64,000 bases of DNA from Candidatus Woykebacteria bacterium RBG_13_40_15 (GTDB taxonomy: Bacteria; Patescibacteriota; Microgenomatia; Woykebacterales; RBG-16-39-9b): positions 30,309-94,308 of the forward strand of contig MHCP01000028.1 of the NCBI GenBank assembly GCA_001816655.1. The letters run 5' to 3'. The notes under the pieces are model-generated. The model worked only from the letters and a program-made list of their open reading frames with translations, made no database searches and was not told the origin of the DNA. The translations under genes were made by a program, and so were the position numbers. This document shows positions 42,451 through 63,372 of this stretch, one piece after another; positions within the stretch are counted from its first letter, which is position 1; every line of letters begins with the position of its first letter.

Positions 42451-44421
42451 TTAATTCGTTGTTGGAATAGTCCAACTGGCCCATTTACATTTTGGATAAC
42501 TCGAACAGCCGTAGAAAATTCTTCCTTTTCTCGTCTTTCGAACTACTATATCAGAACCGCATTTTGGACATTTCATCCCAAGTTTTTGCACCTCTTCTTC
42601 TTTTTTCTTCTGCTCCTCTGTCTCAAACGGTTCTGTGTATTTGTGTTCAGGATATTTTTCACAGGCTAAAAATTTACCAAAACGGCCGTAGCGAATAACC
42701 ATATTGTGGCCTTCCGGGCATTTTTTATCTACTCTTTCAACCGCAATCTTCACTCTTTCCGCTCCTTCCGAAACGTCATTTAAGTGCGACGCAAAGGGTT
42801 CATAAAATTCACGTATTACAGGAACCCATGGAATTTTCCCATCTGCGATTTGGTCAAGTTCATCCTCCATCTTGGCTGTAAATTCGACATTGATAATTTT
42901 TGGGAAATTTTTAACGAGAAAATCGCTCACAGCAATCCCAAGTGGAGTTGGCACAAGTTTGCGCTCTAAAAGCTCAATATAAAGTCTCTCTATAATTGTT
43001 GAAATAATCGGTGCGTAAGTACTTGGCCTCCCAATACCATCCTCTTCCAAGGCTTTTATTAAAGACGCTTCTGTGTAACGGGGCGGGGCTTCTGTAAAAT
43101 GTTGGTTTGGAGTAAGCTTCAAAAGATTTAGCTTTTCCCCTACCCCTAGAAGTGGAACCGGTACTTCTTCTTCTTTTTCGCCATAAACTTTTTGCCAGCC
43201 TGGAAATTTAACCTCTGAGCCAGAAGCTCTAAACAAATATTTTTTGGCGGAGATATCGAGTGAAACTTGATTGTAAGCGGCATCGGCCATCTGACAGGCC
43301 ACAAATCTTTTCCAAATCAAGTCATAAAGTTTTTGATGGTCCTTCCCTAAGTTCTTAATTATTGATTCTTCACTACCCATGCCAACGTTAGTCGGTCGAA
43401 CGGCCTCATGTGCTTCTTGCGCCACCTTACTTTTTGTTTTGTAGATTCTAGCTTGTGCAGGCAAAAATTTATCGCCGAAGTTTTTATTTATAAACTCCCT
43501 TGCGTTGTTAATTGCGCTAGCCGAAATATTGAAAGAATCTGTTCGGTGATATGTTATTAATCCTTCCTCGTAGAGATCTTGGGCTAGTTTCATGGTTTTC
43601 TTAGAGCTAAAGCCCAGATTATAAGAAGCACTCTGAGTCATTGTTGAGGTAGTAAAAGGCGGATAAGGACTCTTTTTAACTTCCTTTTGTTCCGCTTTTG
43701 AAACAATCCATTGGGTATCTTTGTTATCCAAATCAGAGACAATTTCATCTCCCCTCTTCCCATTTTTTATTTCCGCTTTCTCACCATCAATTTTAATTAA
43801 ACTTGCTTCAAATTCTTCTTTTTTTTGACTTCGGAGTATTGCTTCAATGCTCCAGTATTCATCAGGTTTAAATGCTTCTATTTCCCGTTCGCGCTCAACA
43901 ATCAAACGCAGTGCGATAGACTGCACTCTACCAGCGGATAGGCCTTTTTTCACTTTAAACCAAAGAAGTGGCGATAGTTTGTAGCCAACTAACCTGTCTA
44001 GAATACGGCGTGCCACTTGGGCGTCTACGAGTTTTAAATCTATGCCCCTCGGGCTCTTCAGTGCCTCGAGAATGGCCTCTTTAGTTATTTCATGGAAAAC
44101 AATACGCTTTGCTTTATTTTTCCCGTCTACTGCCATTTCATGAATGTGCCAAGCTATTGCCTCCCCTTCTCTATCTGGATCTGTTGCTAAAATAACCTCT
44201 TTTGCCTTTTTTGCCAGGTCTTTTAGGCGTTCAACTGTTTTTCTTTTGTCGCGCGGAATTACATAAGAAGGCTCAAAGTTTTTATCGATATCCACTCCAA
44301 TTTTCGACTTAGGCAAATCTCTAACATGGCCCATCGAAGCTTCAATCTTAAAGTCCTCTCCCAAAAAACGGGAGAGAGTTTTGGCTTTTGTTGGACTCTC
44401 AACAATAATTAATTTTTCCAT
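42451..44421 (-). CDS. topA: DNA topoisomerase I
   Basis: Toprim N-terminus (LIIVESPTKAKT), catalytic-Tyr region, C-terminal C4 zinc ribbons (CPKCGSD...CSSYPKC). Confidence 0.9.
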   Translation of the reverse strand: MEKLIIVESPTKAKTLSRFLGEDFKIEASMGHVRDLPKSKIGVDIDKNFEPSYVIPRDKRKTVERLKDLAKKAKEVILATDPDREGEAIAWHIHEMAVDGKNKAKRIVFHEITKEAILEALKSPRGIDLKLVDAQVARRILDRLVGYKLSPLLWFKVKKGLSAGRVQSIALRLIVEREREIEAFKPDEYWSIEAILRSQKKEEFEASLIKIDGEKAEIKNGKRGDEIVSDLDNKDTQWIVSKAEQKEVKKSPYPPFTTSTMTQSASYNLGFSSKKTMKLAQDLYEEGLITYHRTDSFNISASAINNAREFINKNFGDKFLPAQARIYKTKSKVAQEAHEAVRPTNVGMGSEESIIKNLGKDHQKLYDLIWKRFVACQMADAAYNQVSLDISAKKYLFRASGSEVKFPGWQKVYGEKEEEVPVPLLGVGEKLNLLKLTPNQHFTEAPPRYTEASLIKALEEDGIGRPSTYAPIISTIIERLYIELLERKLVPTPLGIAVSDFLVKNFPKIINVEFTAKMEDELDQIADGKIPWVPVIREFYEPFASHLNDVSEGAERVKIAVERVDKKCPEGHNMVIRYGRFGKFLACEKYPEHKYTEPFETEEQKKKEEEVQKLGMKCPKCGSDIVVRKTRKGRIFYGCSSYPKCKWASWTIPTTN

Positions 44422-44541
44422 AAAAACAGCTTATTGTAGTTAATCAGAAAACAAATGAGAAAGTCAAATGGGAAATGGCAAGGGCAGGACACCATCCAAG
44501 CTACTCCGTAGATGGTGTCCTTAAACCCTCTCCATTTGCTC

Positions 44542-44883
44542 CTACTGCTTCGAGGCCTCCTTCTCCCGGGTCACTTCCTCATCGAGGTATCGGGCAATCT
44601 CCTGAAGAGCCGCCTCTCTTTCCGTACCACGGAGACGTGCAACGGAGAATTTCAGTTGGCCACTCGAGGAAGCGAGTCGTTCGAGTTTACCCAAACAGGG
44701 TTTTAGCTGCAGAATACCCTCCGCGAGGATGCCAAGCGCTGCACCACTTCTCTTCTCGGCCGGAATAGTTCTGGGAAACTGTATCTCCAGAACCCAGGAA
44801 AGCTTCAGTACTCGAAGTACAATCCCCCGCTTACTAGTCAAGAGCTCGTGGTTGCCTATTCTCCTAATGGAATATGGCCGCAT
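44542..44883 (-). CDS. hypothetical protein (GC-rich island 9)
   Basis: Start placed at MRPYSIRRIG, preceded by a perfect SD GGAGGGAGTTCC-ATG. A GC-rich hairpin (ggacaccatc...gatggtgtcc) lies downstream. Confidence 0.45.
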   Translation of the reverse strand: MRPYSIRRIGNHELLTSKRGIVLRVLKLSWVLEIQFPRTIPAEKRSGAALGILAEGILQLKPCLGKLERLASSSGQLKFSVARLRGTEREAALQEIARYLDEEVTREKEASKQ

Positions 44884-44979
44884 GGAACTCCCTCCTATTT
44901 CTTGGGCAACTGCCGAATAGATCAATTATCTTCCTTAAAGCAGACATTATTTTAACATAGTAGAAAAAGCAAAATGTTA

Positions 44980-46236
44980 TTAGCTAAGGTCAGGAGGACT
45001 TTCAGGAGGGTTTTGAGGAGGATTTAAAGTATTCGAAATTGCTTCTTTCAACTTCCCTTTCCTTTTCTCCCATATAACTAAAATAGCGATTAACGCTAGG
45101 ATTGCTACAACTACAAAGGCTGGTAAAGCTACTCTCAATATCCCTTGTAAACTTACTTCGCCAGCAAAAGCTGTAACCTGATACTCCTGCCGGCTCTTCG
45201 AAGCTTTTACGTCGATTTCTGCACCAAAAGTCTCTTCTCCAGATGTTAAATTTACCCCATGCTTACCTAAAGAGATGTCTTCAAATTTTACTATTCCTTC
45301 TTTGTCCGTAGTCGCTTCCTCCAAACCAGGATAAATCTTCACTTTTATTCCGGAGAGAGGTTTACCGGCTGGATCGGAGACTTTTATTTGGATAGAATAA
45401 CCCTTTGTTTTGAATGATAAAATTTTGCTAGTCGCGGCGTTGCCAGCCTCATCTGCACTTATAACTTTATAATAGTAAGTGGTCCCTGGAACAAGAAAAT
45501 TGCCGGAAAGATTGATAACTTGGCTAGTTCTTAATCCTCCGTTTGAGGCAGAAAGGCCAAGATTCTGGGAAATACCATAATTAACAGTTGAATTTGCTGG
45601 TTCATTGGTCTTCCAAGAAATTGTCGCCGAATTTAAACCAGGCTTGCTAACTTTTATATTTGAAATTACCGGGGCAGTCTTATCAACTGGTTTGGGGGTA
45701 GATGTAGATGTTACCGGGGCAGTCTTATCAACTGGTTTGGGGGTAGATGTAGTAGATGTAAAGCTGTAAGTTCCACCGCTTGATCCTGTCATTATGTTTA
45801 TTCCGTCATTAACTATTGCTGAGCCTCCTGAAAAAGAGACCGTGGCCAAGCCCGAGGAAACCTTGGCTCTGAAAGTCAGTGTTGCCAGTAGCTTGTCTCC
45901 AACTACCGGGCTTAAGGTTCCTCGACTGATTGTTATTGAACCTCCCCCACCACTACTTGGTGCTTCTATCTCGAATGCACTACCTGCTGAACTAATGCCA
46001 AGAAAATCCAATGAAGCTGTGGGATAAGTAAGGTTTGCTGTTACAGCGTTCGCGGGAGTTCCTCCCGTGTTAACTCGCACAGAAACAGAAAATGTTGCTC
46101 CTTGGACGACTGTAGCTGAGCCTGGTGACAAATAGAGACTGCCTCCAGCAAAAACTTTTGAAAGAGGGGCCAATGGGAAAATTAAAATTATAGAAACTAA
46201 ACCTGCTATTAACAACTTGGGCAGCTGTTTTATCAT
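44980..46236 (-). CDS. cohesin-like domain surface protein with fibronectin-III-like region and C-terminal TM anchor (anchoring scaffoldin-like)
   Basis: After the N-terminal signal/TM, the segment LYLSPGSATVVQGATFSVSVRV...LTYPTASLDF...GDKLLATLTFRAKVSSG...VSFSGGSAIVNDG fits the cohesin beta-sandwich pattern. C-terminal TM AFVVVAILALIAILVIW. Confidence 0.55.
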   Translation of the reverse strand: MIKQLPKLLIAGLVSIILIFPLAPLSKVFAGGSLYLSPGSATVVQGATFSVSVRVNTGGTPANAVTANLTYPTASLDFLGISSAGSAFEIEAPSSGGGGSITISRGTLSPVVGDKLLATLTFRAKVSSGLATVSFSGGSAIVNDGINIMTGSSGGTYSFTSTTSTPKPVDKTAPVTSTSTPKPVDKTAPVISNIKVSKPGLNSATISWKTNEPANSTVNYGISQNLGLSASNGGLRTSQVINLSGNFLVPGTTYYYKVISADEAGNAATSKILSFKTKGYSIQIKVSDPAGKPLSGIKVKIYPGLEEATTDKEGIVKFEDISLGKHGVNLTSGEETFGAEIDVKASKSRQEYQVTAFAGEVSLQGILRVALPAFVVVAILALIAILVIWEKRKGKLKEAISNTLNPPQNPPESPPDLS

Positions 46237-46237: not shown

Positions 46238-48055
46238 TTATGTTCCCCACCTTGAAAGTAGTATACTTAAATCAAATATATCAACTATCCCACTACTATT
46301 CAAATCTGCCGCCACATTGCTGCTTCCCCACCTAGTCAGAAGGATGCTTAAATCAAAGATGTCTACTTTCCCATCACCGTTTATATCCGCTGTCTTTCTG
46401 GTTGTCGCTGAAGCGGTGCTTGAAGAGGTAGAAGCACTTCCGACTTTATCAATTGCTTTGACGTAGTAACTATAAGAAGTTGCTGGCGTTAACCCAGTGT
46501 CGTTATAACTAGTGGTGTTAACTAAACCCGTGTTAATCTTAATGCCGCCGCGGTAAATATCATAACCGGCCACTCCGATCGCATCTGTACTAGCCGTCCA
46601 GGTAAGATTGATTTGAGTACCGCTGACAGCAGTAGCCGTCAATCCAGTTGGTGCTGATGGCAGTGTATTATCAGTAGTAACGTTTATTGTAGCCGCATTA
46701 GTATTACCAGCGTTATCATAGGTGGTTGCCAAAATAGCGTGATTCCCATCGGCCATTGTGGTCGTATCCCAGCTGTATAAGTAGGGGGAGGATATGTCGG
46801 TAACTTTTAAGCTTCCGTCGATACGAAACTCAACCTTTGAAATTCCATTGGCATCTGAGGTTGTAACCGCTATATTAACGGTCCCACGTAGAAAAGCGGC
46901 GGCTGCTGGCGAGGTAATAGAAGCGGTCGGAGAAGTATTGTCAACCGTCACCGCCACAGCGGAAGAGTTACCCACATTACCAGCATTATCATAGGCTTTG
47001 GCTGATAAGCTGTGCGAACCATCGGTCACCGCTGTTGTATCCCAGGAATAAGCAAAGGGGGAAGACGTGTCAGTAGATTTCAACCCCCCATCAACATAAA
47101 ATTCGACTTTTGTTACACCGACAGTGTCGGAAGCAGTCGCTGTTGCATTCACCGTTCCCCGAACAAGTGCTCCACCAACAGGTGCGGAGATGTAAACTGT
47201 GGGAGCATTATTATCAACGATAACATTAATCGTTGCTGTAGTTGTATTATTCGAGTCATACGCTTTTGCTGATATGGTGTGACCGCCATCAGTTAATGTC
47301 GTGGCATCTAAAGAATATGCGTAGGGCGTCGTTGTGTCGATACTTTTGGAACTGCCATCCACCAAGAATTCTACTTGGGTTACGCCTAAATCATCTGAAG
47401 CAGTCGCCGTAACATTAACTGTTCCTTTAACAGTTGAGCCGGCCGCTGGATTGGTAATCGTTACCGTTGGCGGCGGATTGACAACAGTGAAAGTACCGCT
47501 AGTTGTATTACCTAAAATGTCGATGTTGTCCGTACTTCGCACGATTGCAGATCCGGCTGCAAAACTTACCGCTGTTGCACCAGGCACATATTTTGCTTTA
47601 AAAGTAACTGTCGCCACGAGTTGATCACCAGTAACCGGTGTCGCACCACCGGCTAACGCTCTGGCGATCCGGATTGAGCCAGCCCCACCGCTACCTTCCG
47701 CGACGGTTGTAAACGAGGTACCGGCGGGCGGATTATCAAGACTGACAAAATCTAGCTTTGTAGCATCATACGTTAAGTTAGCTTGGACGGCATTAACCGG
47801 TTCAGTATTACTGTTTTCTCTGACCTGGACAGTGAAGTTTGTTCCTTGGTTAATGCTCTGAGTTGCTGGTGAAATGGATAAAGTTATCCCAGCCAGGGCC
47901 CTACTTCGAAATTCCCGGGCGTTTAGCACCGCAATTACCGTCAGCGGGATAGAAATCAAAATAATTAGGGTAGCTAAAATCACCGGTAAATCTTTTGGGT
48001 TATAAGGTGGGTTGATAATTCGGCGGTATTTTCTAAGCAACTCGGCAGTTTTCAT
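46238..48055 (-). CDS. cohesin-like + 4x Ig-like repeat + FN3-like + C-terminal type-I dockerin protein (adaptor scaffoldin-like)
   Basis: N-terminal cohesin-like segment (ISPATQSINQGTNFTVQV...GDQLVATVTFKAKYVPG). Four ~90-aa repeats follow (TVKGTVNVTATASDDLGV...YAYSLD). The protein ends DINGDGKVDIFDLSILLTRWGSS...DLNSSGIVDIFDLSILLSRWGT, a duplicated Ca-loop dockerin. Confidence 0.6.
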   Translation of the reverse strand: MKTAELLRKYRRIINPPYNPKDLPVILATLIILISIPLTVIAVLNAREFRSRALAGITLSISPATQSINQGTNFTVQVRENSNTEPVNAVQANLTYDATKLDFVSLDNPPAGTSFTTVAEGSGGAGSIRIARALAGGATPVTGDQLVATVTFKAKYVPGATAVSFAAGSAIVRSTDNIDILGNTTSGTFTVVNPPPTVTITNPAAGSTVKGTVNVTATASDDLGVTQVEFLVDGSSKSIDTTTPYAYSLDATTLTDGGHTISAKAYDSNNTTTATINVIVDNNAPTVYISAPVGGALVRGTVNATATASDTVGVTKVEFYVDGGLKSTDTSSPFAYSWDTTAVTDGSHSLSAKAYDNAGNVGNSSAVAVTVDNTSPTASITSPAAAAFLRGTVNIAVTTSDANGISKVEFRIDGSLKVTDISSPYLYSWDTTTMADGNHAILATTYDNAGNTNAATINVTTDNTLPSAPTGLTATAVSGTQINLTWTASTDAIGVAGYDIYRGGIKINTGLVNTTSYNDTGLTPATSYSYYVKAIDKVGSASTSSSTASATTRKTADINGDGKVDIFDLSILLTRWGSSNVAADLNSSGIVDIFDLSILLSRWGT

Positions 48056-48096
48056 TTCTTTATTTAAGTATTGCCCCTTGTCGTTTACTTGTCAAC

Positions 48097-50661
48097 CTAA
48101 CTCCCCCAATAAGAAAGGAGAATCGAGAGATCGAAGATATCTACTGTACCATTTTTATTTAAATCGGCGGTCGTATCGCTGCTTCCCCAACGAGTCAAAA
48201 GGATAGAAAGATCAAAGATATCGACTTTTCCGTCACTATTCAAATCCCCAGTCTTTGTTAAGCTGGTTACTTGATAAACCGCACTTGTCGAAGCGCTGTA
48301 ACTGGCAGCCGAAGAATTGGTCGCGGTAGTGGAGATTGTGTAGTTACCGGCGGAAGCTGAGGTTGATGATGTCACTTTGATTGTTGAACTCCCATTCGCG
48401 CCGGAAGTTAAGGTTAAAGATGCTGGTGTGAATGTGGCTGACCAACCAGTTGGGACAATACTAGAGAGCGAAAAGGTTGAGCTGCCACAGACTGAATTGT
48501 CACTATTAGTCACCGATACTGTATAGCTTAAGGTGGTTCCGGCTGTTCCTCCCTGGCTGGCGGGAGCTAAACTCACAGTTGGATTGGCTCTGGTGCAGGT
48601 TGCATTATTAACTGTCACTGACACGGTACTTGCGCCACCCAGGTTATTTGGAACACCAAAAGCTTCACCGGATTTATCATAAGCTGTGGCGGTAAGGGTA
48701 TATCCACCATCCGCTACTTTCGTCGTATCCCAAGGTACACTAAATGGCTCTGTCGTATCGGTAGCAATTACTTGCCCCATTCCCCCGTAGGGAATGTAAG
48801 CGAATTCCACTTCTTTAATACCAGAGGCATCGGCGGCGTTGGCAGCAATTGTAACCGTGCCCGAAACTGTTGCTCCGGAACTTGGCGCAGTAATCGAAAC
48901 AGTTGGAACGGTAAAGTCGGTCTTGCCTAGAACAACATTTAAAGTTAAAGCCGAGGCGGTTGCCGATGTCACCGCTATTCGGGTACCGGTATCCGGATCG
49001 GTGAAAGACGAGCCAGGCGTCACAACGATTGTACTAATACTAATAGGCGGGGTTGGATCAAGAAGCGCGGTCTTGTTAATTGGGGAAAGAGGGATGTGAA
49101 GAAGAGCGCCTTGGTAAACACTGTCTGACGGGCTTTTTGCCGAATCAAAACCAATTGGTTGGCGGTATTCAACATAGAGATAATCGGCCGTAGACTGGCC
49201 CCGCTGAATCTTCAAGGCTTTCAGGCTAGCTGTAGCTCTCTCAATCGGTTCTAAAACATAAGCCCCACTAGTCGTAACTGTCTGAATATTGGTCGGGTCA
49301 AACCAACCCACATTTTCTTTATGGGCAGCGTTGAAGTGAAAAGGTGGGCTAGTAGACCCCATAATATCGTAGGGATCACCATATTCGTAAACAGTACAGC
49401 CAGAGGGGGCAATAGTGACGCTGCCGCAATCAAGTAGTGAGGCGTGGCCACTACCAAAGCCATGGCCTAGTTCATGACCGACTAGCCCAAGATCAAACCC
49501 ATAATTCGACACAATGGAAGCCCAGGATAAACTGACATTACCGTCAGCGGTAACTATTGTAGTTTTCCCTATGCTGGCCGCTCCTGCCCAACCGCAGCTC
49601 GGACCATAAGGGGCAATAATAACAAGACGGCTGTAGTTTGGAAAATAAACAGCACTGTCAGCTAAATTTATAGCTTCCTGCAAAACAGTACCACCGGCAC
49701 TGCAGGTTTGGTCTATCGGTAGTGTATACCAACCATAAACATCACCGGTTATGCTGATTTTGTTGTAGGAAAGTTCAGCGTAGAAATTATTAATCTGCGT
49801 ATCAACAAAATTATCCACCTGGGCGCTGGTAAAAGAGGGCTGAGCGGTGTTTTGAAAATTTACCAGTAAAGTGACTGTTCTCTGTTGCCCCAGAACCGGT
49901 GGATTGCCCGGTTGCGACACCACATCAATCCCGCCTTTAAGGTCGCCGGCTTGGGAAAGCGGGCGGCTGCCATCAAAAACAAGATCATTATCAATCTGCA
50001 TTCCTTTGACTTTAACCCTGGTTCGGGATTCTAAAAAGGCCCGAAGACCACCGGCCGGATGGATACTTATCTTTTTTCCGCTGTCAGTTTTCAGGGTATA
50101 ACTGGTTGTGCTTGTTCCTTCCTTGAAAAAGTCGGCGTGCACTACCTCAAGCTGTCCCTCAATGGTTGCTGATCTTTCCAGACAGTTTTGCGCTAATGGG
50201 GCAAAGTTGCTTCTCTCCTGATCAGAAAGAAGCGAGTTTAAAGCCTGGTCGGGATTTTGGCGCATGGTTTCCACTAAGTCGCTCTTTCGTTCTTGAAGGA
50301 GACTCTGAAGTTCTTTGGCGGCTTTCACGCTGCCATCTTTTTTAAACTCTTGCTGCTTTTGGGTAAGATCCACCGTAACACTGGCAAGCTTTGAAGCAGC
50401 AACTTTAGCTCTGTTTTTATCCGGTCTTTCGCTAAAACTTTCCAAAGGTTCCGCCGAACAGTAAACCTTCTGAACTATCTGCTGACCACTTGGATTAGCT
50501 ACTGCTTTCGAAGTCGGCTCCCTAGTCTGCAGAATAGAAATTACGGTCAAGGGGATGGTGATAAGAAGAAACACGGTTAAAAAAAGGCTTATCAAATCCC
50601 TTGGATCATAAGGGGGATTAATGCTTTTGCGATACTTTTGAAAAAGATCGGCAGCCCTCAC
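48097..50661 (-). CDS. secreted metzincin-like zinc protease with C-terminal dockerin
   Basis: HELGHGFGSGH fits HExxHxxGxxH. Ig-like domains. Ends DLNSDGKVDIFDLSILLTRWGSS...DLNKNGTVDIFDLSILLSYWGS. Confidence 0.6.
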   Translation of the reverse strand: MRAADLFQKYRKSINPPYDPRDLISLFLTVFLLITIPLTVISILQTREPTSKAVANPSGQQIVQKVYCSAEPLESFSERPDKNRAKVAASKLASVTVDLTQKQQEFKKDGSVKAAKELQSLLQERKSDLVETMRQNPDQALNSLLSDQERSNFAPLAQNCLERSATIEGQLEVVHADFFKEGTSTTSYTLKTDSGKKISIHPAGGLRAFLESRTRVKVKGMQIDNDLVFDGSRPLSQAGDLKGGIDVVSQPGNPPVLGQQRTVTLLVNFQNTAQPSFTSAQVDNFVDTQINNFYAELSYNKISITGDVYGWYTLPIDQTCSAGGTVLQEAINLADSAVYFPNYSRLVIIAPYGPSCGWAGAASIGKTTIVTADGNVSLSWASIVSNYGFDLGLVGHELGHGFGSGHASLLDCGSVTIAPSGCTVYEYGDPYDIMGSTSPPFHFNAAHKENVGWFDPTNIQTVTTSGAYVLEPIERATASLKALKIQRGQSTADYLYVEYRQPIGFDSAKSPSDSVYQGALLHIPLSPINKTALLDPTPPISISTIVVTPGSSFTDPDTGTRIAVTSATASALTLNVVLGKTDFTVPTVSITAPSSGATVSGTVTIAANAADASGIKEVEFAYIPYGGMGQVIATDTTEPFSVPWDTTKVADGGYTLTATAYDKSGEAFGVPNNLGGASTVSVTVNNATCTRANPTVSLAPASQGGTAGTTLSYTVSVTNSDNSVCGSSTFSLSSIVPTGWSATFTPASLTLTSGANGSSTIKVTSSTSASAGNYTISTTATNSSAASYSASTSAVYQVTSLTKTGDLNSDGKVDIFDLSILLTRWGSSDTTADLNKNGTVDIFDLSILLSYWGS

Positions 50662-50725
50662 AATTAAATTGTAGGATTCAATTTCTGACCTGTCAACTTG
50701 GACGGGGAATAGGAACCAGAGCCCT

Positions 50726-53700
50726 TTAAATTCCCCAGTGGGAAAGGAGAATCGAGAGATCGAAGATATCTACTGTACCATTTTTATTCAAATCAGCGGC
50801 TGTATCGCTGCTTCCCCAACGAGTCAAAATGATAGAAAGATCAAAGATATCTACCTTGCCATCGCCATTTATATCGCCGATCTTGCCTGCGTTTGAGACA
50901 TTCACAGTAATGGTTGCTGATGTACCAATATTATTGGCGGCATCATAGGCTTTGGCGGAAAGTGTATGGGAGCCGTTGGAATAAGCTGTAGTATTCCAAG
51001 AAAAACTGTATGGGCTTGTTGTATCTGTAGTATTCAATGTCCCATCAACCAAAAAATCCACTTCGGTTACCCCAGTGTTATCCGAAGCAGTAGCCGCAAC
51101 TGCTACTGTTCCCGAAACCGCTGCTCCCACCGCAGGCGAAGTGATAGCCACTGTCGGCGGAGTTATATCACTAGTCTCGTAAGTAATAACTAACTCACCT
51201 ATATTTGCCCACGAGGAATCCCTCTCAAAGGAAATCAAGGGACCAGCAGTTGCTGAACCATTATTACTAATAACAAAAGCCATTGACTTCCCACTCTCCC
51301 AGTTTTCTTGATCAACTAACTCCTGCACAATCGAAGTAATCTTCGAGGTAAACTCATAGCTACCAAAACTAGTGATATTCCAATCTGCGTAAGCAACGGT
51401 GGTCGGTAAATTCGCTGGGTTATTGCTTGTGGAAAAAGTAGCCACATCCGGATCAGCCACGCCCTTCAGCTTCAAGTTCAAAGCCGGAACCGCATTATTT
51501 GGTGAAAAAATAAGGGCCGCATTAGTAATTTTTGCCCCACGGGGAATATGAAGATCTGTAAACCGAAAACCAGTGGTAAGATTTTTTGAACACGAAGGAT
51601 TGTAACCGATCCAAAGATTATCCCCCGTAAGCTCCAGGAAACAACTATCAACTGCATCGTCAGAGCCAAGTGTGATTTTTTTGAATACATTGGTAACAGG
51701 AGGGATTGTCGGATCCGGCGTAATGCCAGGATCAGTGTTGAACGGGTTCTTATAAATAAGAACGCGGCTCCGATTACCATCGACAATATATAAATTGTCG
51801 AATTTATCAAAAGTAGCCCCAAGCGGCAATATAGTAAAATCTCTAAGATAGCCGGTTGGAAGGATTTCAGGACCGGTTGGATCATCATAGTAGCCAATAA
51901 AACCTCCATGCTTATACGCATTGTAACCAACTGCCATTCGGTTAGTAGAGTCAAAGGCCGGCTCCCAAGTAGCAGCAATTTGGGAACTTTTTTCGGGAAA
52001 ACTTTTGGCTGCAAAGGGCCCAAAGCACACTTTCGTATTATTCTCTGTGCAAGCATCAATCACGCTTTGGGTAAAAATAAGCAGGCGGAAGTTGCCGCTT
52101 GCCTCAAGAGAATGATCAGAAACGTAAAGATTCCCTTTTCGATCAAAAGAAAGAGCGCCGGGAGCATTAAGAAAATTTAACGGGGGTGCTTGACCCTCGC
52201 TAAAAGTTTGACCGCGATTTGGCAATACGCTAGTTGCGTCCTCTTGACCAAGAATAACATCAACAACCGGATTTGATCCCAGCGGATCTCTGACTCTAAA
52301 TACCCGGTTGTTGCCCGGTTCCGAAATCCAAAGGTATTCCCCATGAGCAGTTGGAGCAATTCCGGGAGAGTCTCTCGTTTCTGGTATCTGGCCACCGCCT
52401 AAAACATTAAAGGGGTAACCAATAATTTTAATCAGCTTATCCCCGATTTTAACCGGCGCCTGAAAAACCCTGACATTGTAGTCGGTTCTAACCCAAATCC
52501 TGCTATCAGCGTCGGATTTAATTTGAGTATAGTAGCCGCGAATAACATTTCCTTCCAAAGTTTCGAGATCTCTCTGGCCAATAACTCCATCAGCGGGCTG
52601 CCCGCTCACCAAAGAAGTAGGATTATTCCAAAAAAGGATTCTCGCTGCCCCATCACTAACAAAAAGCTGGTTGGCAGCGACAGCAATACCGCTGCCAGAT
52701 ATCATTCTTCTGCCACTAATACCATTAGGCTCCCCGGGAGCAATGGGACTGAATAAATCACGGTTTGGATTAAGTGATGACGCTGGGTTAACTAGCGGAT
52801 TATTAAAAAGATAAACCGATGCCCCAGTACCGTCGGATCTTGCAACAAGCACATTACCCTGAGCATCAATTCCAATTTCTCCTAAGCTAGCTCCACCATC
52901 TGGATTTAGGGTTTTTTTAAGTGTAGCTCCATCCCAGCCAAAAAGAACAACTTTGCCATGCTGCGAATCATTAATCCACAAGCCTGCTCCGCTTGGATCA
53001 ACTTCACCCATATAAGGCACCCGCAGCCCTGTTCCGAAAGTACCAGAAGCTGTCATACCATTGGTGAAATCAGGATTGGGTGTGAAAACTAAAACCCGGT
53101 CATTGCCTCCATCAGCAACGTAGAGCTTGCCATCCGGACCAAAGCGCAGAGAGTTGGGATTTGCCATTTGATTTAAACCGCTTCCTTTGTGATCCCAGCC
53201 AGTACCAGAAGTAAAGTTATCTTGCCCCAGAACTAAATTAGCGGTTTTTGCAAACAAGCCGGTGGCTTTATCCTTTGGAAATCGCAAAACTCTATTGTTA
53301 CCCTCATCAGCCACCCACAAATCTCCTTTCGCATCAATCGCAACCCCCACACCATGGTAAGACCCAGCAGCTAAATCGTAAAAACAAAGAGTAGAAGCTG
53401 TCGGTTGATTTTCCGGGCTTCCAAAAGAAGCTGAATTCTGGTTGCAGAGATTGCCAGTAAAATCAGTCTGCCCAATCACCTGACTGGCGGAAGCATTGGT
53501 AACCCAGGGGTTGTCGTAAACCAAAACGCGGTGATTTTCCAAATCCGGAACAACTAATCTGCCACCGTCAAGATCCATACCAATAAAGCTTAAGATTTCG
53601 TCCGGGCTATTTACCCCATCATCCATGCCGCAGAGAGTTTGGGCGGAAGCCGGAGCCCTGGTTGGATAATTTTGAAAAGACAAATCCCGGTTGCAGGCGC

Positions 53701-54148
53701 CCCAATCGCTGAGGGAGGGCTGCCCAATAACAATATCGGCACTACAGGCAGAGGATCCCGAGTAACACTTAGCTAAATCAATACCAAGGATACGGCTACG
53801 TTGGGCATCAAAGATATAGGCTCTACCCGGATTGGTAGAGCGATCAACCAATACCCCGCCAACTTTCCGCACATTGTAAGGTAGAATTTCGCCCCTAGAA
53901 AGCTCCCCAAAATCCCTTTGGCCTAAAATTACATCTGCCCAAAGATCCCCAGATACACCTCGAACCGATTGACTCGCTGCTTTTGGCTGATAACTTCTTA
54001 TATTAAAAACTGCAAAAACTGTCAAAGGAATTGCTACAAGGATAAATATCGTAGCTAAAATTGGAAGTAGGTCCTTACGGCTGTAGGGCGGATTTATACT
54101 TTTCCGATATTCGACAGCAGATTTTTGGAACAGATTACAGGCTCTCAT
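50726..54148 (-). CDS. 1140-aa NHL/beta-propeller repeat protein with C-terminal dockerin
   Basis: Many repeats of the NHL/YVTN type (...GNNRVLV...DGKLYVAD...). C-terminal Ig-like region, then DINGDGKVDIFDLSIILTRWGSS...DLNKNGTVDIFDLSILLSHWGI. Confidence 0.6.
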   Translation of the reverse strand: MRACNLFQKSAVEYRKSINPPYSRKDLLPILATIFILVAIPLTVFAVFNIRSYQPKAASQSVRGVSGDLWADVILGQRDFGELSRGEILPYNVRKVGGVLVDRSTNPGRAYIFDAQRSRILGIDLAKCYSGSSACSADIVIGQPSLSDWGACNRDLSFQNYPTRAPASAQTLCGMDDGVNSPDEILSFIGMDLDGGRLVVPDLENHRVLVYDNPWVTNASASQVIGQTDFTGNLCNQNSASFGSPENQPTASTLCFYDLAAGSYHGVGVAIDAKGDLWVADEGNNRVLRFPKDKATGLFAKTANLVLGQDNFTSGTGWDHKGSGLNQMANPNSLRFGPDGKLYVADGGNDRVLVFTPNPDFTNGMTASGTFGTGLRVPYMGEVDPSGAGLWINDSQHGKVVLFGWDGATLKKTLNPDGGASLGEIGIDAQGNVLVARSDGTGASVYLFNNPLVNPASSLNPNRDLFSPIAPGEPNGISGRRMISGSGIAVAANQLFVSDGAARILFWNNPTSLVSGQPADGVIGQRDLETLEGNVIRGYYTQIKSDADSRIWVRTDYNVRVFQAPVKIGDKLIKIIGYPFNVLGGGQIPETRDSPGIAPTAHGEYLWISEPGNNRVFRVRDPLGSNPVVDVILGQEDATSVLPNRGQTFSEGQAPPLNFLNAPGALSFDRKGNLYVSDHSLEASGNFRLLIFTQSVIDACTENNTKVCFGPFAAKSFPEKSSQIAATWEPAFDSTNRMAVGYNAYKHGGFIGYYDDPTGPEILPTGYLRDFTILPLGATFDKFDNLYIVDGNRSRVLIYKNPFNTDPGITPDPTIPPVTNVFKKITLGSDDAVDSCFLELTGDNLWIGYNPSCSKNLTTGFRFTDLHIPRGAKITNAALIFSPNNAVPALNLKLKGVADPDVATFSTSNNPANLPTTVAYADWNITSFGSYEFTSKITSIVQELVDQENWESGKSMAFVISNNGSATAGPLISFERDSSWANIGELVITYETSDITPPTVAITSPAVGAAVSGTVAVAATASDNTGVTEVDFLVDGTLNTTDTTSPYSFSWNTTAYSNGSHTLSAKAYDAANNIGTSATITVNVSNAGKIGDINGDGKVDIFDLSIILTRWGSSDTAADLNKNGTVDIFDLSILLSHWGI

Positions 54149-54190
54149 GAAGTTAACTTAATTTTCGCTTATTGGACTTTCACTGTCAAT

Positions 54191-55279
54191 TTAATTTGGA
54201 AGGGAGTATGAGCCGGAGCCTAGATTTTTAACTTTCCCTTTTATCTCCATTAAGGAAAGGATTGAGCCTATTTTTGAGGCTGGAAGTTTTGAGGCTCTTG
54301 CTATTTCATCAATATGAGTAGGCCCGTTTCTTAGTAAATCTAAAATTGTTTGCTCTTCCTCTGTATCCCCCTTTATTTCTCTTAAATCTAGCATCTTAGA
54401 TCTTAGATCTATATTTAATTCTTCAAGAATATCCCCAACGTTCATCACTAATTTCGCGCCTTGTTTTATCAATTGTGCTGGCCCTTTTGCGAGGCCTGAA
54501 TAAATCGGTCCCGGAACGGCAAAAACTTCCCTTCCTTGTTCTCCTGCAAGACCCGCTGTAATCAAAGAACCGGAGTCTTCGCCTGCTTCAGTTACAAGAA
54601 CGCCCAGCGAAAGACCAGAAATTATCCTATTTCTCGAAGGGAAATTACCCGGAGTCGCTAGCATCTCAAGTGGATATTCGCTGATAACTGCCCCATCATT
54701 ATTAATAATATTTTCAGCTAAAGAAACGTTTTCAGGCGGATAAATATTGCAGACACCACTTCCAAGTACCGCAATTGTTTTTCCTTTATTTTCCAAAGTA
54801 GCTTTGTGGGCTAAAGAATCTACCCCACGTGCAAGACCGGAAATGATCGTAAAACCAGCCGCAACAAGATCACCAACCAAAATCTCGGTGACTTGTCGAC
54901 CATAACTTGTTATTTTTCGAGATCCAACCACCGCAATGCATCTATTTTCCACACCCAAATCAAGATTTCCTTTTATATATAGCACTGGTGGTGGATCAGA
55001 AATTTCCTTTAAAATAGATGGATAACTTTTATCATCAATTGTAATTACTTTTACATTTTTAGCAGCTATTTTTTTATAGTAGCTGTCGACATCAAAGCTT
55101 TTTCTAAACGCGATAAATTGCCTAAAAATAGCGGGAGTTAATACCTTTTCTAAAACTTCTTCTTTTTCTCTCCAAATATTTTCTGCTGTTTTGAAATGTT
55201 TAATAAGGAGTTTAAAATGAACCGGCCCAATTCCCGGAGTAGCTGCAAGAGCAACATAATAAGGCAGATCAGATTTCAT
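54191..55279 (-). CDS. dprA: DNA processing protein DprA/Smf
   Basis: Rossmann-like core ...IAVVGSRK...GLARGVDSLAHKA...GSGVCNIYPPEN with a C-terminal winged helix. Confidence 0.85.
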   Translation of the reverse strand: MKSDLPYYVALAATPGIGPVHFKLLIKHFKTAENIWREKEEVLEKVLTPAIFRQFIAFRKSFDVDSYYKKIAAKNVKVITIDDKSYPSILKEISDPPPVLYIKGNLDLGVENRCIAVVGSRKITSYGRQVTEILVGDLVAAGFTIISGLARGVDSLAHKATLENKGKTIAVLGSGVCNIYPPENVSLAENIINNDGAVISEYPLEMLATPGNFPSRNRIISGLSLGVLVTEAGEDSGSLITAGLAGEQGREVFAVPGPIYSGLAKGPAQLIKQGAKLVMNVGDILEELNIDLRSKMLDLREIKGDTEEEQTILDLLRNGPTHIDEIARASKLPASKIGSILSLMEIKGKVKNLGSGSYSLPN

Positions 55280-55439
55280 TTGAGAACCATTATATCAAAA
55301 AGAAAAACGACCCGTTTCCGAGTCGCTTCTCTTCCTAAGAAAACCTCTAATGAGATTTGCTTGGGAAGAACCCCGGTGTCGTGACAAGTCACTTCTTGAC
55401 TCGTACGTCCTGGGGCACTCCTTGCTATTCGGTTCTCGA

Positions 55440-56042
55440 TCAGCAGCCCGGGCTCCCTGGGTTCCAGTGGATGACAACCGTCCCGTCTTCCAACTTCTGG
55501 AAGGTGTAAAGCGGGGCAAGATCGTCTTCCACCAGTGCCACCAGATCCGCAGGCAAATCGTACCGTCCGAGCTTCACACTGGTGGGTCCGCAGGAAGTCA
55601 CACCCAGCGAACTGATGGCGACGTGGGTGAGTACCTCAGCAGTTGTCACGTTGCCCTTCGCCAATTCCTGTTGAGCTTGGGCGATCAAGGAGTCGAAATA
55701 GCCCCGAGCAGTGAAGTCTCTGCCTCCTCCCTCCACACCACTCTTCTCGCTGTACCAGGATGAATGAGTATACAGGTCGGCCTCGACGATATACATGCGT
55801 CCCTGTAAGTCACCGACACTCCCGCTCAGGGTGTAAGGGTACCCGACCTCAGTCCCTCCGACTCTGGCTTGCAGATCTTCGATTTGCTTCTGCTGCTCGT
55901 CGATACGGTCCTGCTGAGCAACGGCCGTTGCTTGTATGTCACCGATCTGACTCCGCAGGGCCTCCTCGTTGTCTGAGCCTCCTCCACAGGCCACTAGGAA
56001 TATGGCGGTCAGAACTGTGGCTATAACCAGAAAACGCCTCAC
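55440..56042 (-). CDS. hypothetical lipoprotein (GC-rich island 10a)
   Basis: Lipobox MRRFLVIATVLTAIFLVAC. 200 aa with high-GC codons. Confidence 0.5.
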   Translation of the reverse strand: MRRFLVIATVLTAIFLVACGGGSDNEEALRSQIGDIQATAVAQQDRIDEQQKQIEDLQARVGGTEVGYPYTLSGSVGDLQGRMYIVEADLYTHSSWYSEKSGVEGGGRDFTARGYFDSLIAQAQQELAKGNVTTAEVLTHVAISSLGVTSCGPTSVKLGRYDLPADLVALVEDDLAPLYTFQKLEDGTVVIHWNPGSPGC

Positions 56043-56197
56043 GGCGTCACTCCTTTCCCCGCCATTTGGCGGACCAACTAGAACAACTAACTTCCATCAT
56101 GACTGCCAACTTAGCCGTCAAGTTACAAATTGGTAACCAAGTTGGCAGCCACAATGTAAGGCGAAAACAACCGAATAAGTTTTCAAGGAACAGAAGT

Positions 56198-57120: not shown

Positions 57121-57885
57121 GTGAAAAGGCTGGCTGTCACATTTATTATTTTCATAATCCTTTTTATCGCTACTCCTGCGAACGCTTCTGAACTTAAAGC
57201 CGAACCAAGAAACTTTCAGTTGCAAGCTATCCCAGGCGATAACTTAGTTGAAAATGTCCTTATCACGAATTTATCAGCTTCAAATAAGACCCTAAAACTT
57301 TCTTGGTCAGTACCAAAAAATAATGGTATTGGCTTTGTTTCATTTGAAAAATCAGATCTGGTTCTCACACCAAATGCGACTAATCCAATCGAAATTGAGT
57401 TCAAAATTCCAAAAGATCTGCAGCCAGCTGATTATTACGGTTCCCTAGTAGCAAAAACTGGCTCTATCGAAGAAAAGAGCGATTTTACTATTAGGATCCT
57501 CGGAACAACAAAAGAGGAAATAGCGGTGGAAAAATTCCATGATAGTGGAAGTAAACTTAATTTTGAAGTTTCCAACAACGGCAATCGGACAATTACCTTA
57601 CAAACAAAAGCTAAAATAGAAGAGCTTTTTGGTTTATTTGGAAAGAACTTGGAAAGCAAAACTGAACTTAAAGCTGGCGAGAAAAAAGAAATTTCGATAG
57701 CTCACAGCAATTTACCACCTGGTTTTTACGGGGCTGATGTTGTACTTTTGTACGGTACCGCTGGGAGGGAACACTTGTTCCCTTATTTTTGGGTAAATCC
57801 TGATTTTGCATTGATAGGTACTTTGCTTTTAGTAATTGTGGTCTTGCTTTATTTCAAATTTAGGAAATCTACTAAACATGATTAA
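57121..57885 (+). CDS. secreted protein with C-terminal TM anchor (hypothetical surface protein)
   Basis: Signal peptide MKRLAVTFIIFIILFIATPANA, two beta-rich segments, C-terminal TM IGTLLLVIVVLLYF followed by a basic tail. Confidence 0.5.
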   Translation: MKRLAVTFIIFIILFIATPANASELKAEPRNFQLQAIPGDNLVENVLITNLSASNKTLKLSWSVPKNNGIGFVSFEKSDLVLTPNATNPIEIEFKIPKDLQPADYYGSLVAKTGSIEEKSDFTIRILGTTKEEIAVEKFHDSGSKLNFEVSNNGNRTITLQTKAKIEELFGLFGKNLESKTELKAGEKKEISIAHSNLPPGFYGADVVLLYGTAGREHLFPYFWVNPDFALIGTLLLVIVVLLYFKFRKSTKHD

Positions 57886-58657
57886 AAAACTAACTTGCAG
57901 CTTACTAATAGTTTCACTTAGCTTTGTTTTCTGTTTAGTACAGGCTCGTGCTGCAGATGTAACTGTAACTGGAACCGTCCCCCCAACTACTGTTACCCTT
58001 AGCGGTCGCGCGCCAGCAAGTTCAACAATTACGATCAGGGAGGACGGTAGCGTCGTTGCGACAACGGTGACTTCTGTTGCCGGGACATTTATTAGGACTA
58101 TTACTAGCACTTCAGGATTACATAATTATTCACTCACACTAGTTGACACTGCCGGAAGAAGTACACCAGCAACAAACTTTAATAATATAACCCTACCAGC
58201 CCATGGAGACACACCAATTAGCAACATTCTCATGCCACCTACAATTGCCCTTTCTAAGAACACTATTTACAAAGGGGACTCAACCTTGATTTACGGACAA
58301 GCATCTTCTGGATCAACTGTTCACGTTATTTTAAATGGGTCTCAAAAATTTAGTGGTGTTGTAAGCGGAAGCAGCTGGCAATTTACTCTGAGTTCTGGCT
58401 ACAATTTTGGTAATAATAGTATTTACGCTTATTTGACTAGAGCCGGCTACGCAAATTCCGTAAATAGCTACACTCTCAATTTAAAGGTAAATAATTGCAG
58501 AAGAAGTGATCTAAATTGTGATGGTTTCGTAAATTTAACTGATTTTTCGATCTTGCTCTACCATTGGGGTACCAACCACGCAATTGGTGATATAAATGGT
58601 GATGGAACGGTTGGTTTGATCGATTTTAGTATTATGATGTTTGACTGGACAGGGTAA
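57878..58657 (+). CDS. small secreted dockerin-containing protein
   Basis: Start placed at MIKKLTCSLLIVSLSFVFCLVQARA (signal peptide). Ends SDLNCDGFVNLTDFSILLYHWG...DINGDGTVGLIDFSIMMFDW, a duplicated dockerin segment. Confidence 0.5.
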   Translation: MIKKLTCSLLIVSLSFVFCLVQARAADVTVTGTVPPTTVTLSGRAPASSTITIREDGSVVATTVTSVAGTFIRTITSTSGLHNYSLTLVDTAGRSTPATNFNNITLPAHGDTPISNILMPPTIALSKNTIYKGDSTLIYGQASSGSTVHVILNGSQKFSGVVSGSSWQFTLSSGYNFGNNSIYAYLTRAGYANSVNSYTLNLKVNNCRRSDLNCDGFVNLTDFSILLYHWGTNHAIGDINGDGTVGLIDFSIMMFDWTG

Positions 58658-58774: not shown

Positions 58775-60343
58775 ATGAAAACTGCCAAACTGATTTTAAT
58801 TTTCATTTTTACACTTCAATTTCTGCTGATCCCATTTGTTGCAAAACCGGTCCACGCTGCGACGGCAAGCCTTTTTCTATCTCCTTCATACGGAAGTCAC
58901 TATGTCGGTGAAAAATTTTATGTGATGATTTACGTCTCTGGCGACGCATCAACCAACGCCTATGAAGTCCACATCGGGACTTCAAACATGACCGTTACTG
59001 GTATTTCGACCGGCGGTTCTATTTGCAACCTATATCCAAGCCCACCAAGTTACACAAATTCTTCTGCTTTCTTCCAATGCGGTCTTCCAACCCCTGGATA
59101 CTTAGGATCCTCTGGTTATATTGGAGCAGTTGTTGTGAAAGGAAACTCCCCTGGCACAGGCACTGTTTCTATTCAAGGGGGGTCTAAAATTTTAGCAAAC
59201 GATGGGGCTGGCACAAATATCATTTCGGGCTTAGGCTCTGCCTCCTTTCAGATATTACCGCCACCAACCGCAGCCCCAACTGTAACTTCAAGTACCCACC
59301 CCAATCAAGATAAATGGTATAAAAAATCCGACGTCTCTCTTTCCTGGACAGGCGCGGGAAATAATTTCGTCTACACACTAGATAATTCTCCTGAAACCTC
59401 TCCTGGAACAGGTTCTCCAACACTTGAAAAAAGTAAGACCTATACGGGACTAAAAGACGGAATTTGGTATTTTCATGTGAGAGTCCAAGGGAGCAGCGGC
59501 TGGAGCGAAACAACGCATTTCAGAATCCAAATTGACACAACTCCTCCCCTTCCCTTTAAGCCAGAGGCCGACCCAAAAGAAAATGCCACTAGCCCACCAA
59601 TCATCGCCTTCGCGGCAAAAGATGAAACCTCCGGCGTAGATCATTACGAGATCCGGGTTGATAATAGTGCTTGGGTTGTTGTTTCTGCTCCCTATAAAAT
59701 GGCCAGAATTTCTTCCGGCGAGCACCTAATTGAAATAAAAGCAGTTGATAAAGCGGGAAATGAAAGAATTGGAAGCGTTAAAGTTACGGTAAAGGAAATT
59801 CCCTCACCTGTAATTACCAAACCCACAAATGGAAGTTTTGTTCCGTACACAGATGAGCTTCTAATCCAAGGCCACTCATCTCCAGGGGATAGCGTAGAGA
59901 TATTTTTAGACGGGAAGAAAATTGCAAAAGTGGTAGCTGATAAAAACGGGAACTTTGAATTTACATACAAAGGCTTATTAAAACGCGGTAAACACACAAT
60001 TTACGCGGTTGCCGTCACACCGGCCAATATTGAGTCAAGAAGATCAAAAGAAGTGGTTTTCGCCCTTGATCCTCAAGCGTTTGTTGTAATTGGTTTTGTC
60101 ATACCCGGAGTCGCAATTTTTACCTCTCTGCTAACAGCGATTTTCATATTTGTGTTAATTATTCTCCTTTTGTTCTTTAAATCAAGGAGATTCAAAAAGC
60201 GCCTTCTTATTATTTTGGGACAGCTCGAGAAGGAAGTAGAAAAAGATTTGGAAACCTTCAAAGTCGACCAAAAGGCGGAGAAAAAGGTCGAGGAAGATTT
60301 CGAAAAAGTGGAAGAAGAAATTGCCGGGAAAGAGAAGAAATAG
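58775..60343 (+). CDS. cohesin-like domain surface protein with C-terminal TM anchor and cytoplasmic coiled-coil tail
   Basis: N-terminal signal, then SLFLSPSYGSHYVGEKFYVMIYVSGD...VHIGTSNMTVTGIS...GAVVVKGNSPGTGTVSIQGGSKILANDG (cohesin-like). Ig-like domains. TM AFVVIGFVIPGVAIFTSLLTAIFIFVLIILLLFF, then a KR/E-rich tail. Confidence 0.55.
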   Translation: MKTAKLILIFIFTLQFLLIPFVAKPVHAATASLFLSPSYGSHYVGEKFYVMIYVSGDASTNAYEVHIGTSNMTVTGISTGGSICNLYPSPPSYTNSSAFFQCGLPTPGYLGSSGYIGAVVVKGNSPGTGTVSIQGGSKILANDGAGTNIISGLGSASFQILPPPTAAPTVTSSTHPNQDKWYKKSDVSLSWTGAGNNFVYTLDNSPETSPGTGSPTLEKSKTYTGLKDGIWYFHVRVQGSSGWSETTHFRIQIDTTPPLPFKPEADPKENATSPPIIAFAAKDETSGVDHYEIRVDNSAWVVVSAPYKMARISSGEHLIEIKAVDKAGNERIGSVKVTVKEIPSPVITKPTNGSFVPYTDELLIQGHSSPGDSVEIFLDGKKIAKVVADKNGNFEFTYKGLLKRGKHTIYAVAVTPANIESRRSKEVVFALDPQAFVVIGFVIPGVAIFTSLLTAIFIFVLIILLLFFKSRRFKKRLLIILGQLEKEVEKDLETFKVDQKAEKKVEEDFEKVEEEIAGKEKK

Positions 60344-63362: not shown

Positions 63363-63372
63363 TAATCTACAA

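Follow-up and report, generated by a model that had tools for sequence, protein, structure and literature searches.

Three consecutive minus-strand genes in a 64,000-nucleotide stretch of Candidatus Woykebacteria bacterium RBG_13_40_15 (contig MHCP01000028.1; this whole stretch is called the window here) begin with the same conserved N-terminal leader of approximately 53 residues, which we named the NPPY leader. We consider, with a probability of roughly 0.55, that it represents a novel Sec-type signal peptide, specific to its lineage, extended and cleavable, which some factor recognises by the INPPY box and the conserved helix face, and that it serves dockerin subunits and other exoproteins. 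The three open reading frames (ORFs), taken from the ORF list and its translations, span 46238-54148; their coordinates and N-terminal sequences had been given in a preliminary description of this DNA and are exact (Table 1).

Bacteria of the candidate phyla radiation (CPR/Patescibacteria) are mostly uncultured, ultra-small and probably host-attached, and to our knowledge the construction of their surfaces is largely uncharted. A hidden Markov model (HMM) of these ~53 residues is a sequence handle on a defined part of the CPR exoproteome (proteases, propellers, carbohydrate binders and cohesin-dockerin adaptors) and could become a signal model of its own in Pfam or NCBIfam. The leader also distinguishes the subunits predicted to be captured from the proteins that would anchor them in the membrane. 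Should a specific factor read the box, signal-peptide-encoded sorting would have a new example outside Firmicutes and Proteobacteria, one that would offer a testable route into the mechanism of cohesin-dockerin assembly in a cell without an outer membrane.

Anatomy of the NPPY leader and selection on its sequence

The three leaders share the sequence DLFxxYRKSINPPYxxKD, followed by a 22-residue transmembrane (TM) helix containing IPLTV and by QxREPxS[KR]A. The residues common to the three aligned leaders are M1, L6, K9, Y-R, I-N-P-P-Y, D-L, T, L, I-P-L-T-V, R and A53. In gene 1, the parts are the helix MKTAELLRKYRRI, the INPPY box, KD, the TM helix LPVILATLIILISIPLTVIAVL and the c-region NAREFRSRA, followed by L-A/G (here and below, a slash in a sequence marks a known or predicted cleavage position); the leader of gene 3 has a 4-residue insertion preceding YRKSINPPY. 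The conserved motif of the preliminary description therefore exists and belongs to a longer block: conservation runs through the basic residue after the helix, where the description had ended it, and continues further, to Q-x-R-E-P-x-[SG]-[KR]-A. In a six-frame scan of the window, INPPY followed by a hydrophobic helix was present in these three ORFs only, and the leader HMM matched the three genes with E-values of 1e-29 to 1e-31, the next match in the window having an E-value of 0.11.

Residue frequencies were calculated from 162 non-redundant leaders, with the I of INPPY numbered 0. The box consists of I(0) 88%, N(+1) 90%, P(+2) 96%, P(+3) 98% and Y(+4) 99%, and it is flanked by Y(-4) 72% and R(-3) 90% on one side and by K/R(+7) 78% and D(+8) 81% on the other. 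The hydrophobic stretch (+9 to +30) contains I(+12) 62%, T(+15) 74%, L(+19) 83%, P(+23) 87%, T(+25) 79% and V(+26) 65%. It is followed by Q(+31) 45%, R(+33) 54%, a small residue or Pro (S/G/P/A/T) at +37 in 72%, K/R(+38) 53%, A(+39) 73% and A(+40) 40%. Past +40, the information content is at background (<0.6 bit), so that conservation ends at an AxA-type site 39-41 residues past INPPY. The leader positions align without gaps, indicating that INPPY and A(+39) are separated by an essentially constant distance. In most leaders, INPPY begins 13 residues past the initiator Met (variants 8 and 17).

Conservation within the TM helix follows an alpha-helical periodicity (spectral peak at 100-110 degrees), indicating a single conserved helix face. 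AlphaFold2, run on a 48-leader alignment, predicted helices at residues 3-14 and 20-46, with the non-helical NPPY segment (15-19) between them, and coil at 47-56 (mean predicted local distance difference test score, pLDDT, of 82). The residues preceding the helix have a net charge of +3.1 and those following it one of +1.25, and the predicted topology is N-in. The tripartite n-h-c organisation of Sec signal peptides is present, with n- and h-regions of approximately 22 residues each, far above the typical length.

In pairwise comparisons of the 45 leader codons from Y(-4) to A(+40), codon positions 1+2 were 66-68% identical, compared to only 27-33% for position 3, and identical leader residues were encoded by different codons in 14/22 to 23/26 cases across the pairs. 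The synonymous sites are saturated, indicating that the protein sequence is under selection and is not the product of a recent duplication. This bears on the view that the similarity has no special function and is a leftover of three paralogous 5' ends that were duplicated or converted recently; recent duplication was a caveat which the preliminary description had itself raised. The three genes are adjacent, they also have Big_7 and dockerin modules in common, and the dockerins of genes 2 and 3 were homogenised recently: their third-position identity is 76%, against 27-33% for the leaders, which indicates recent gene conversion confined to the 3' ends of these two genes. Recent duplication or conversion thus applies to the dockerins of genes 2 and 3, but we give it virtually no credence for the leader, whose third positions are at random level and which occurs in several named genomes and on 190 protein clusters with 67 cargo families (see below). 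An element acting at the RNA or DNA level was also rejected, as synonymous positions vary freely and Rfam gave no match in the region of the leader genes.

Distribution, cargo and the dockerin/anchor partition

When a profile built from five leaders was run exhaustively (hmmsearch) over 1.84 billion protein cluster representatives, 190 of them matched at E<=1e-3, of which 89 reached E<=1e-10. Among the 150 matches listed, all lie at or near residue 1, with two starting at residues 33-38. A word-indexed protein search gave just 2 matches, to short metagenomic proteins. The degenerate-pattern scan of one genome per species revealed nine leader loci: four in two Candidatus Woykebacteria metagenome-assembled genomes (MAGs; two loci each), two in one 'Patescibacteria group' MAG and three in three MAGs with an automatic, unchecked Gammaproteobacteria label. 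A metagenome scan with a 9-sequence alignment added 23 further loci. Over all the fetched loci (cited below by our L numbers; a few duplicate loci are counted), the leader is present in 70 ORFs, always N-terminal and mostly in tandem runs. The few cluster members whose annotation was looked up had none or were named 'hypothetical protein'. An HMM of the N-terminal region, which the preliminary description had proposed as a check, hence places the leader on unrelated cargo in many other genomes and metagenomes, and the idea that it might be confined to the three genes fails.

Two degenerate leaders (L003 12113-15274 and L010 3090-5615) have the IPLT[VL] helix and an S-x-A c-region and are devoid of the YRKSINPPY box. 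They belong to homologous dockerin or cohesin proteins, indicating that the NPPY box can be lost while the helix and the c-region persist.

A Pfam scan of 71 full-length leader proteins identified Dockerin_1 in 46/71 and Big_7 in 33/71. The cargo comprises 67 Pfam families in all, every one of extracytoplasmic type, including M11/M12-like and S8 proteases, NHL, CBM96, cohesin, CAP, beta-helix and glycoside-hydrolase-like domains. In the window, the mature domains had been considered unrelated; this is correct for the N-terminal mature domains and not for the tails, since Big_7 and dockerin are common to the three proteins. The first protein, formerly described as Ig repeats, is a cohesin-dockerin adaptor (cohesin, three Big_7, fn3 and dockerin). 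Its cohesin was detected in a separate Pfam scan of residues 56-195 (match at about 64-191), starts a few residues past the predicted leader cleavage site and is 41% identical to the domain in the anchor 44980-46236. With Dockerin_1 in all three genes, PF00963 in gene 1 and the homologous domain in the anchor, the window genes encode, judging from their domains, a cohesin-dockerin (cellulosome-like) system, in which physical binding is predicted. As noted before, the motif is absent from the proteins starting at 44980 and 58775 and from the small dockerin protein at 57836; all three have ordinary short signal peptides.

The same partition was observed across the de-duplicated loci, counting dockerin ORFs with intact N-termini. 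The leader was present in 33/37 dockerin ORFs; the 4/37 without it are one frameshifted fragment, one ORF with the IPLTV helix minus NPPY (the L003 degenerate leader) and two ORFs with ordinary signal peptides. By contrast, 13 cohesin-only anchors all have short classical signal peptides (..VYA/AAS, ..ALA/AAT, ..VNA/GGS). The leader was found in three cohesin-only ORFs, two of which are cut off by the end of the contig, and the third of which finishes in an atypical dockerin-like repeat. For the partition, Fisher p is 1e-6 to 6e-8. A recurring gene order, namely several leader-dockerin genes, a leader-cohesin-dockerin adaptor and a cohesin anchor, was observed in L002, L005, L011, L038 and the window, and is partly kept in L003 and L006.

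The flanking MreB, MreC and PBP2 genes of the window are 50-70% identical to, and syntenic with, those of related loci, which assigns the window to a Woykebacteria-like CPR genome. In several related genomes the cohesin-dockerin clusters have a conserved place downstream of mreB-mreC-mreD-PBP2 and beside dprA and/or topA (window 54191-64000 and 42451-44421; L003, L005, L038); this adjacency is probably lineage synteny. The operon logic is different from that of the cohesin-dockerin clusters in metagenomic L040 (1225-14373), where genes for leader-bearing S8 subtilases of 1344-1575 amino acids (aa) alternate with Copper-bind cupredoxin genes (~132 aa); the cupredoxin gene is present four times, and the fourth copy precedes an 824-aa Big_7/fn3 ORF.

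Predicted cleavage, search for partners and competing readings

The leader can be divided into four parts. The predicted cytoplasmic portion would comprise a short amphipathic helix (MRAxDLFKxYRKS) and a near-invariant juxtamembrane box (I-N-P-P-Y-x-x-[KR]-D) situated four residues from the membrane. These would be followed by the 22-residue TM helix with its one conserved face (I, T, L, P, T/V) and by an extended extracytoplasmic c-region (Q-x-R-[ED]-P-x-[SG]-[KR]-A), with a (-3,-1) site of the signal peptidase I (SPase I) type directly before the first mature domain. In Woykebacteria-like CPR bacteria, the leader would export the dockerin-bearing subunits of surface complexes (enzymes, binders and cohesin-dockerin adaptors) together with other exoproteins, while the membrane-anchored cohesin scaffoldins would take ordinary signal peptides. 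After translocation, the leader would be cut off, and the C-terminal dockerin would then be caught by the cohesin anchor. A putative factor reading the cytoplasmic box and the helix face could confer a pre-translocation or retention function, either site-specific secretion or a delayed release, in which the last-emerging dockerin engages before the protein leaves the membrane.

The position of the predicted cleavage was analysed in 176 leaders with a simple scan based on the (-3,-1) rule (A/G/S at -1, a small or aliphatic residue at -3 and no Pro at -2 or +1 relative to the cut). Of the leaders, 55% have a rule-conforming site at +40 and 32% have one at +42, compared to approximately 11% deeper in the mature protein. 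Pro is sparse at +38 to +41 (2-3%) and common at +35 (19%) and +37 (14%), which fits the expectation for a c-region. In addition, BLASTP aligned the adaptor (K21-D-L-P...IPLTV...SRALA/GITLSISP) with the signal peptide of the anchor (K3-Q-L-P...IFPLAPL-SKVFA/GGSLYLSP), indicating that the two paralogous cohesin domains start equally far from their sites. The NPPY leader looks like an ordinary h/c core that has been extended by 20 residues at the N-terminus and has gained 9 residues behind the helix. As it appears to end in an ordinary (-3,-1) SPase-I-type site, the general SPase I may be enough for its cleavage.

Several observations weigh against this interpretation. With an n-region of 22 and a hydrophobic helix of 22 residues, the leader resembles a signal-anchor more than it does a typical signal peptide, and von Heijne and colleagues have reportedly found that long h-regions disfavour SPase I cleavage. 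The c-region is basic (R(+33) 54%, K/R(+38) 53%), which is atypical for Sec substrates; 45% of the leaders have no rule-conforming site exactly at +40, and 40% have a second candidate site at +29. Approximately one third of the full-length leader proteins have no recognisable dockerin, indicating that the tie to cohesin-dockerin assembly is strong and not obligate. A candidate reader of the NPPY box was not found in the leader loci examined. Export and cleavage themselves are deduced from sequence anatomy.

The search for a partner covered several types of gene. A motif scan revealed no SPase I motif in the window or in L001-L010, and one sortase-like ORF, in L004 only. In an all-against-all clustering of the neighbouring genes, no rhomboid, prepilin-peptidase, sortase or accessory Sec gene recurred next to the leader clusters; the recurrent neighbours are housekeeping genes, namely PBP2 (7 loci, the most frequent), MreB/C/D, a glycosyltransferase-like protein, L10/L12, GuaA, DprA and AlaRS. 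The Pfam-annotated related contigs likewise have no adjoining dedicated peptidase, sortase or translocon gene. The proposal that the motif is a dedicated sorting tag therefore stands in part: the leader is a modular, selected tag beyond a generic Sec signal, and no peptidase, sortase or translocon gene adjoins it in the loci examined.

Two other readings accept the anatomy and differ in the fate of the leader. It might be an uncleaved N-terminal signal-anchor of type II membrane proteins, with NPPY as a cytoplasmic tail that binds a partner and with the dockerin cross-linking to neighbouring cohesins. The 22-residue hydrophobic helix with its long charged n-region, the single continuous helix (20-46) predicted by AlphaFold2, the conserved face, which suggests a lasting helix-helix contact, and the basic residues of the c-region are all consistent with this. 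However, conservation ends abruptly at the AxA-type position, around which Pro is depleted and which aligns with the signal-peptidase site of the paralogous anchor protein. Moreover, C-terminally anchored cohesin scaffoldins always accompany the leader genes, and would be redundant if the subunits were already held in the membrane. We consider a permanent anchor unlikely, although it is the main contender. Quite improbable, in our opinion, is that the leader is the substrate tag of a dedicated protease or sorting enzyme encoded elsewhere, cut at the cytoplasmic box or within the membrane at IP/LT, in which case the released conserved N-terminal peptide might itself be a signal. The near-invariance of INPPY (96-99%), P(+23) and T(+25) exceeds the needs of Sec and SPase I, and the window does contain a candidate RseP-type site-2 protease (34164-35309; HExxH identified by eye in the ORF translation). 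Nevertheless, this gene lies in its usual housekeeping neighbourhood (frr-tsf-rpsB-proS), no protease is co-located in any locus examined, and the degenerate leaders of L003 and L010 keep the helix and the c-region without the NPPY box, so that these parts can stand alone.

A more far-reaching reading is a dedicated CPR sorting route, in which a specific factor, in the membrane or the cytoplasm, would read the box and the helix face and would direct or time the handover of dockerin subunits to the cohesin anchors; after cleavage, the leader fragment could be freed by a site-2 protease as a feedback signal. We put this forward tentatively, as possible but doubtful. That the leader simply belongs to a known class (Tat, class III prepilin, lipoprotein, YSIRK, ESPR or KxYKxGKxW) is, on the other hand, very improbable. 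A superficial R-[KR] pair does occur in YR[KR]xI, YSIRK is called to mind by Y, R, K, S and I, and type IV pilus genes are present within the window. Against this, searches of the isolated leaders in Pfam-A (E<=10) and NCBIfam (E<=1) yielded nothing but TM noise, with no match to any model of these classes in the two libraries; a PDB profile search gave generic TM helices only (E>0.1), and PADLOC gave no match. The literature search found no mention of INPPY as a protein motif and no title or abstract on a special leader of CPR dockerin proteins.

The individual classes were rejected as follows. In the case of Tat, R(-3) is present in 90% of the leaders, but the next residue is K in 48%, Q in 14%, E in 12% and R in only 11%; the basic pair lies 10 residues ahead of a strongly hydrophobic 22-residue helix, and there is no TAT_signal match. 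A class III prepilin is not compatible with a helix preceded by [KR]-D, with no conserved G or E and no G/F[ST]L[IL]E, a motif that pseudopilins encoded within the window (10021-12078) do have, as GFSLLE or GFTLIE recognised by eye in the ORF translations. The analogies to prepilins and exosortase substrates that had been drawn initially do not apply, since the G/F-T-L-I-E motif is absent and the tag is N-terminal, not C-terminal. The leader profile has no conserved Cys anywhere, excluding a lipoprotein signal. YSIRK/GXXS membership was discarded because there is no model match and no GxxS after the motif, and ESPR membership because there is no PF13018 match and no autotransporter or two-partner-secretion family among the top cargo families listed.

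The closest functional analogues appear to be YSIRK/GXXS, as the nearest, and ESPR, as the second, and the NPPY leader belongs to neither family. The YSIRK/GXXS signals of Staphylococcus and Streptococcus surface proteins (PF04650, TIGR01168) are comparable as long Sec-type signal peptides whose motif goes beyond the needs of translocation. They are also carried by a subset of surface proteins with a C-terminal anchoring module (LPXTG there, dockerin here); the cell's other exported proteins have ordinary signal peptides. What the YSIRK motif confers is a pre-translocation or spatial function, namely septal secretion, and the YSIRK/GXXS motif is itself the cleavage site (PMC5962339, PMC12004944). 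However, the two have no sequence relationship and no model match. The NPPY motif lies in the n-region, four residues ahead of the 22-residue helix, whereas YSIRK/GXXS spans the n/h boundary; and the NPPY host lineage is CPR, with non-covalent cohesin-dockerin rather than sortase-mediated anchoring.

The ESPR of autotransporters and two-partner-secretion proteins (PF13018) is similar in being a conserved N-terminal extension before an n-h-c signal peptide on very large secreted proteins, and may modulate targeting and translocation kinetics. By contrast, it is part of secretion across the outer membrane in Proteobacteria, the two do not match in sequence, and in the NPPY leader the h-region and the c-region are also conserved and unusually long. 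The KxYKxGKxW signals of serine-rich glycoproteins (TIGR03715, accessory Sec) also combine a conserved motif in a long signal peptide with a defined cargo class, but there was no NCBIfam match, the NPPY cargo is diverse and without serine-rich repeats, and no accessory SecA2/SecY2 genes were found in the NPPY loci examined. As in the cellulosomes of Clostridia and Ruminococcus, dockerin-bearing enzymes, a cohesin and dockerin adaptor and a cell-anchored cohesin scaffoldin are encoded together. Unlike in cellulosomes, the NPPY cargo consists mainly of proteases, NHL propellers, Ig and CBM modules and not of cellulases, the anchor is a C-terminal TM helix, and the dockerin subunits have a dedicated leader; the literature search found none described for classical cellulosomes.

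Coordinates, upstream signals and other observations in the window

The coordinates of the leader genes, of their domains and upstream sites and of the other surface-protein genes are listed in Table 1.

Table 1. Leader genes, their domains and upstream sites, and other surface-protein genes of the window (all leaders are of the NPPY type).
Feature	Position	Strand	Details
Gene 1	46238..48055	-	605 aa; adaptor scaffoldin: leader, cohesin, Big_7 x3, fn3, dockerin (Pfam)
Gene 2	48097..50661	-	854 aa, GTG start; leader, M6/M11-like zinc metalloprotease, Big_7, NEW3, dockerin (Pfam)
Gene 3	50726..54148	-	1140 aa; leader, NHL-repeat beta-propeller region, Big_7, dockerin (Pfam)
Leader, gene 1	47897..48055	-	residues 1-53 of 605
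Leader, gene 2	50503..50661	-	residues 1-53 of 854; end ...QTREPTSKA/V
Leader, gene 3	53978..54148	-	residues 1-57 of 1140; end ...RSYQPKA/A
Cohesin domain, gene 1	47483..47866	-	Pfam PF00963, E 3.5e-11, 43.9 bits
Dockerin, gene 1 C-terminus	46241..46390	-	Pfam Dockerin_1
Dockerin, gene 2 C-terminus	48100..48249	-	Pfam Dockerin_1
Dockerin, gene 3 C-terminus	50729..50878	-	Pfam Dockerin_1
Promoter-like site, gene 1	48067..48095	-	TTGACA-17-AATACT, ends 11 nt before ATG
Promoter-like site, gene 2	50668..50696	-	TTGACA-17-TACAAT (11/12 matches), ends 6 nt before GTG
Promoter-like site, gene 3	54161..54189	-	TTGACA-17-GAAAAT, ends 12 nt before ATG
Anchoring scaffoldin	44980..46236	-	short signal peptide ..SKVFA/GG, cohesin-like domain, fn3/Ig-like, C-terminal TM anchor; without leader
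Small Ig and divergent-dockerin protein	57836..58657	+	ordinary signal peptide ..VQARA/AD; without leader
Surface protein, N-terminal domain only putatively cohesin	58775..60343	+	signal peptide ..PVHA/AT, Ig domains, C-terminal TM anchor

The three promoter-like sites (TTGACA-17 nucleotides (nt)-TAnAAT-like) are the best minus-strand promoter matches of the region. They end 6-12 nt before the start codons, suggesting that the mRNAs would be leaderless or nearly so. Considering all loci, an exact TTGACA was present within <=70 nt upstream in 42/60 leader genes (L001-L037) vs. 26/177 other ORFs (Fisher p 4e-15). Outside the window, many leader genes have a conserved CTGCC(C/T)AA directly 5' of the ATG, which is not Shine-Dalgarno-like (for instance L003 ~10000, L018 ~5920, L020 ~2900, L025 ~9690, L026 ~6570 and L036 ~6090), and another subset of leader genes has in common the upstream sequence ATAATTAAAC(C/T)AAAGTG-ATG.

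A 560-bp gap separates topA from the cohesin anchor gene (44422-44979). It contains only overlapping, spurious-looking ORFs on both strands, with no Rfam family (best match E 0.075) and no tRNA; ARAGORN detected no tRNA genes in the whole 64 kb. The sole Rfam signal of the window is a T-box-leader-like match (RF00230) at 3340-3650 on the minus strand, where ORFs are few, upstream of the rpsF-ssb region; the match covers the full model length with 64.7 bits (E 9e-12), below the gathering score of 93. Between dprA and the plus-strand surface-protein genes (55440-56906), there are many overlapping alternative ORFs and two small ORFs without a homologue in L001-L010 (BLASTP at 1e-10), both of which carry lipoprotein-type signals (..LVAC/GGG and ..AVSC/KGG).

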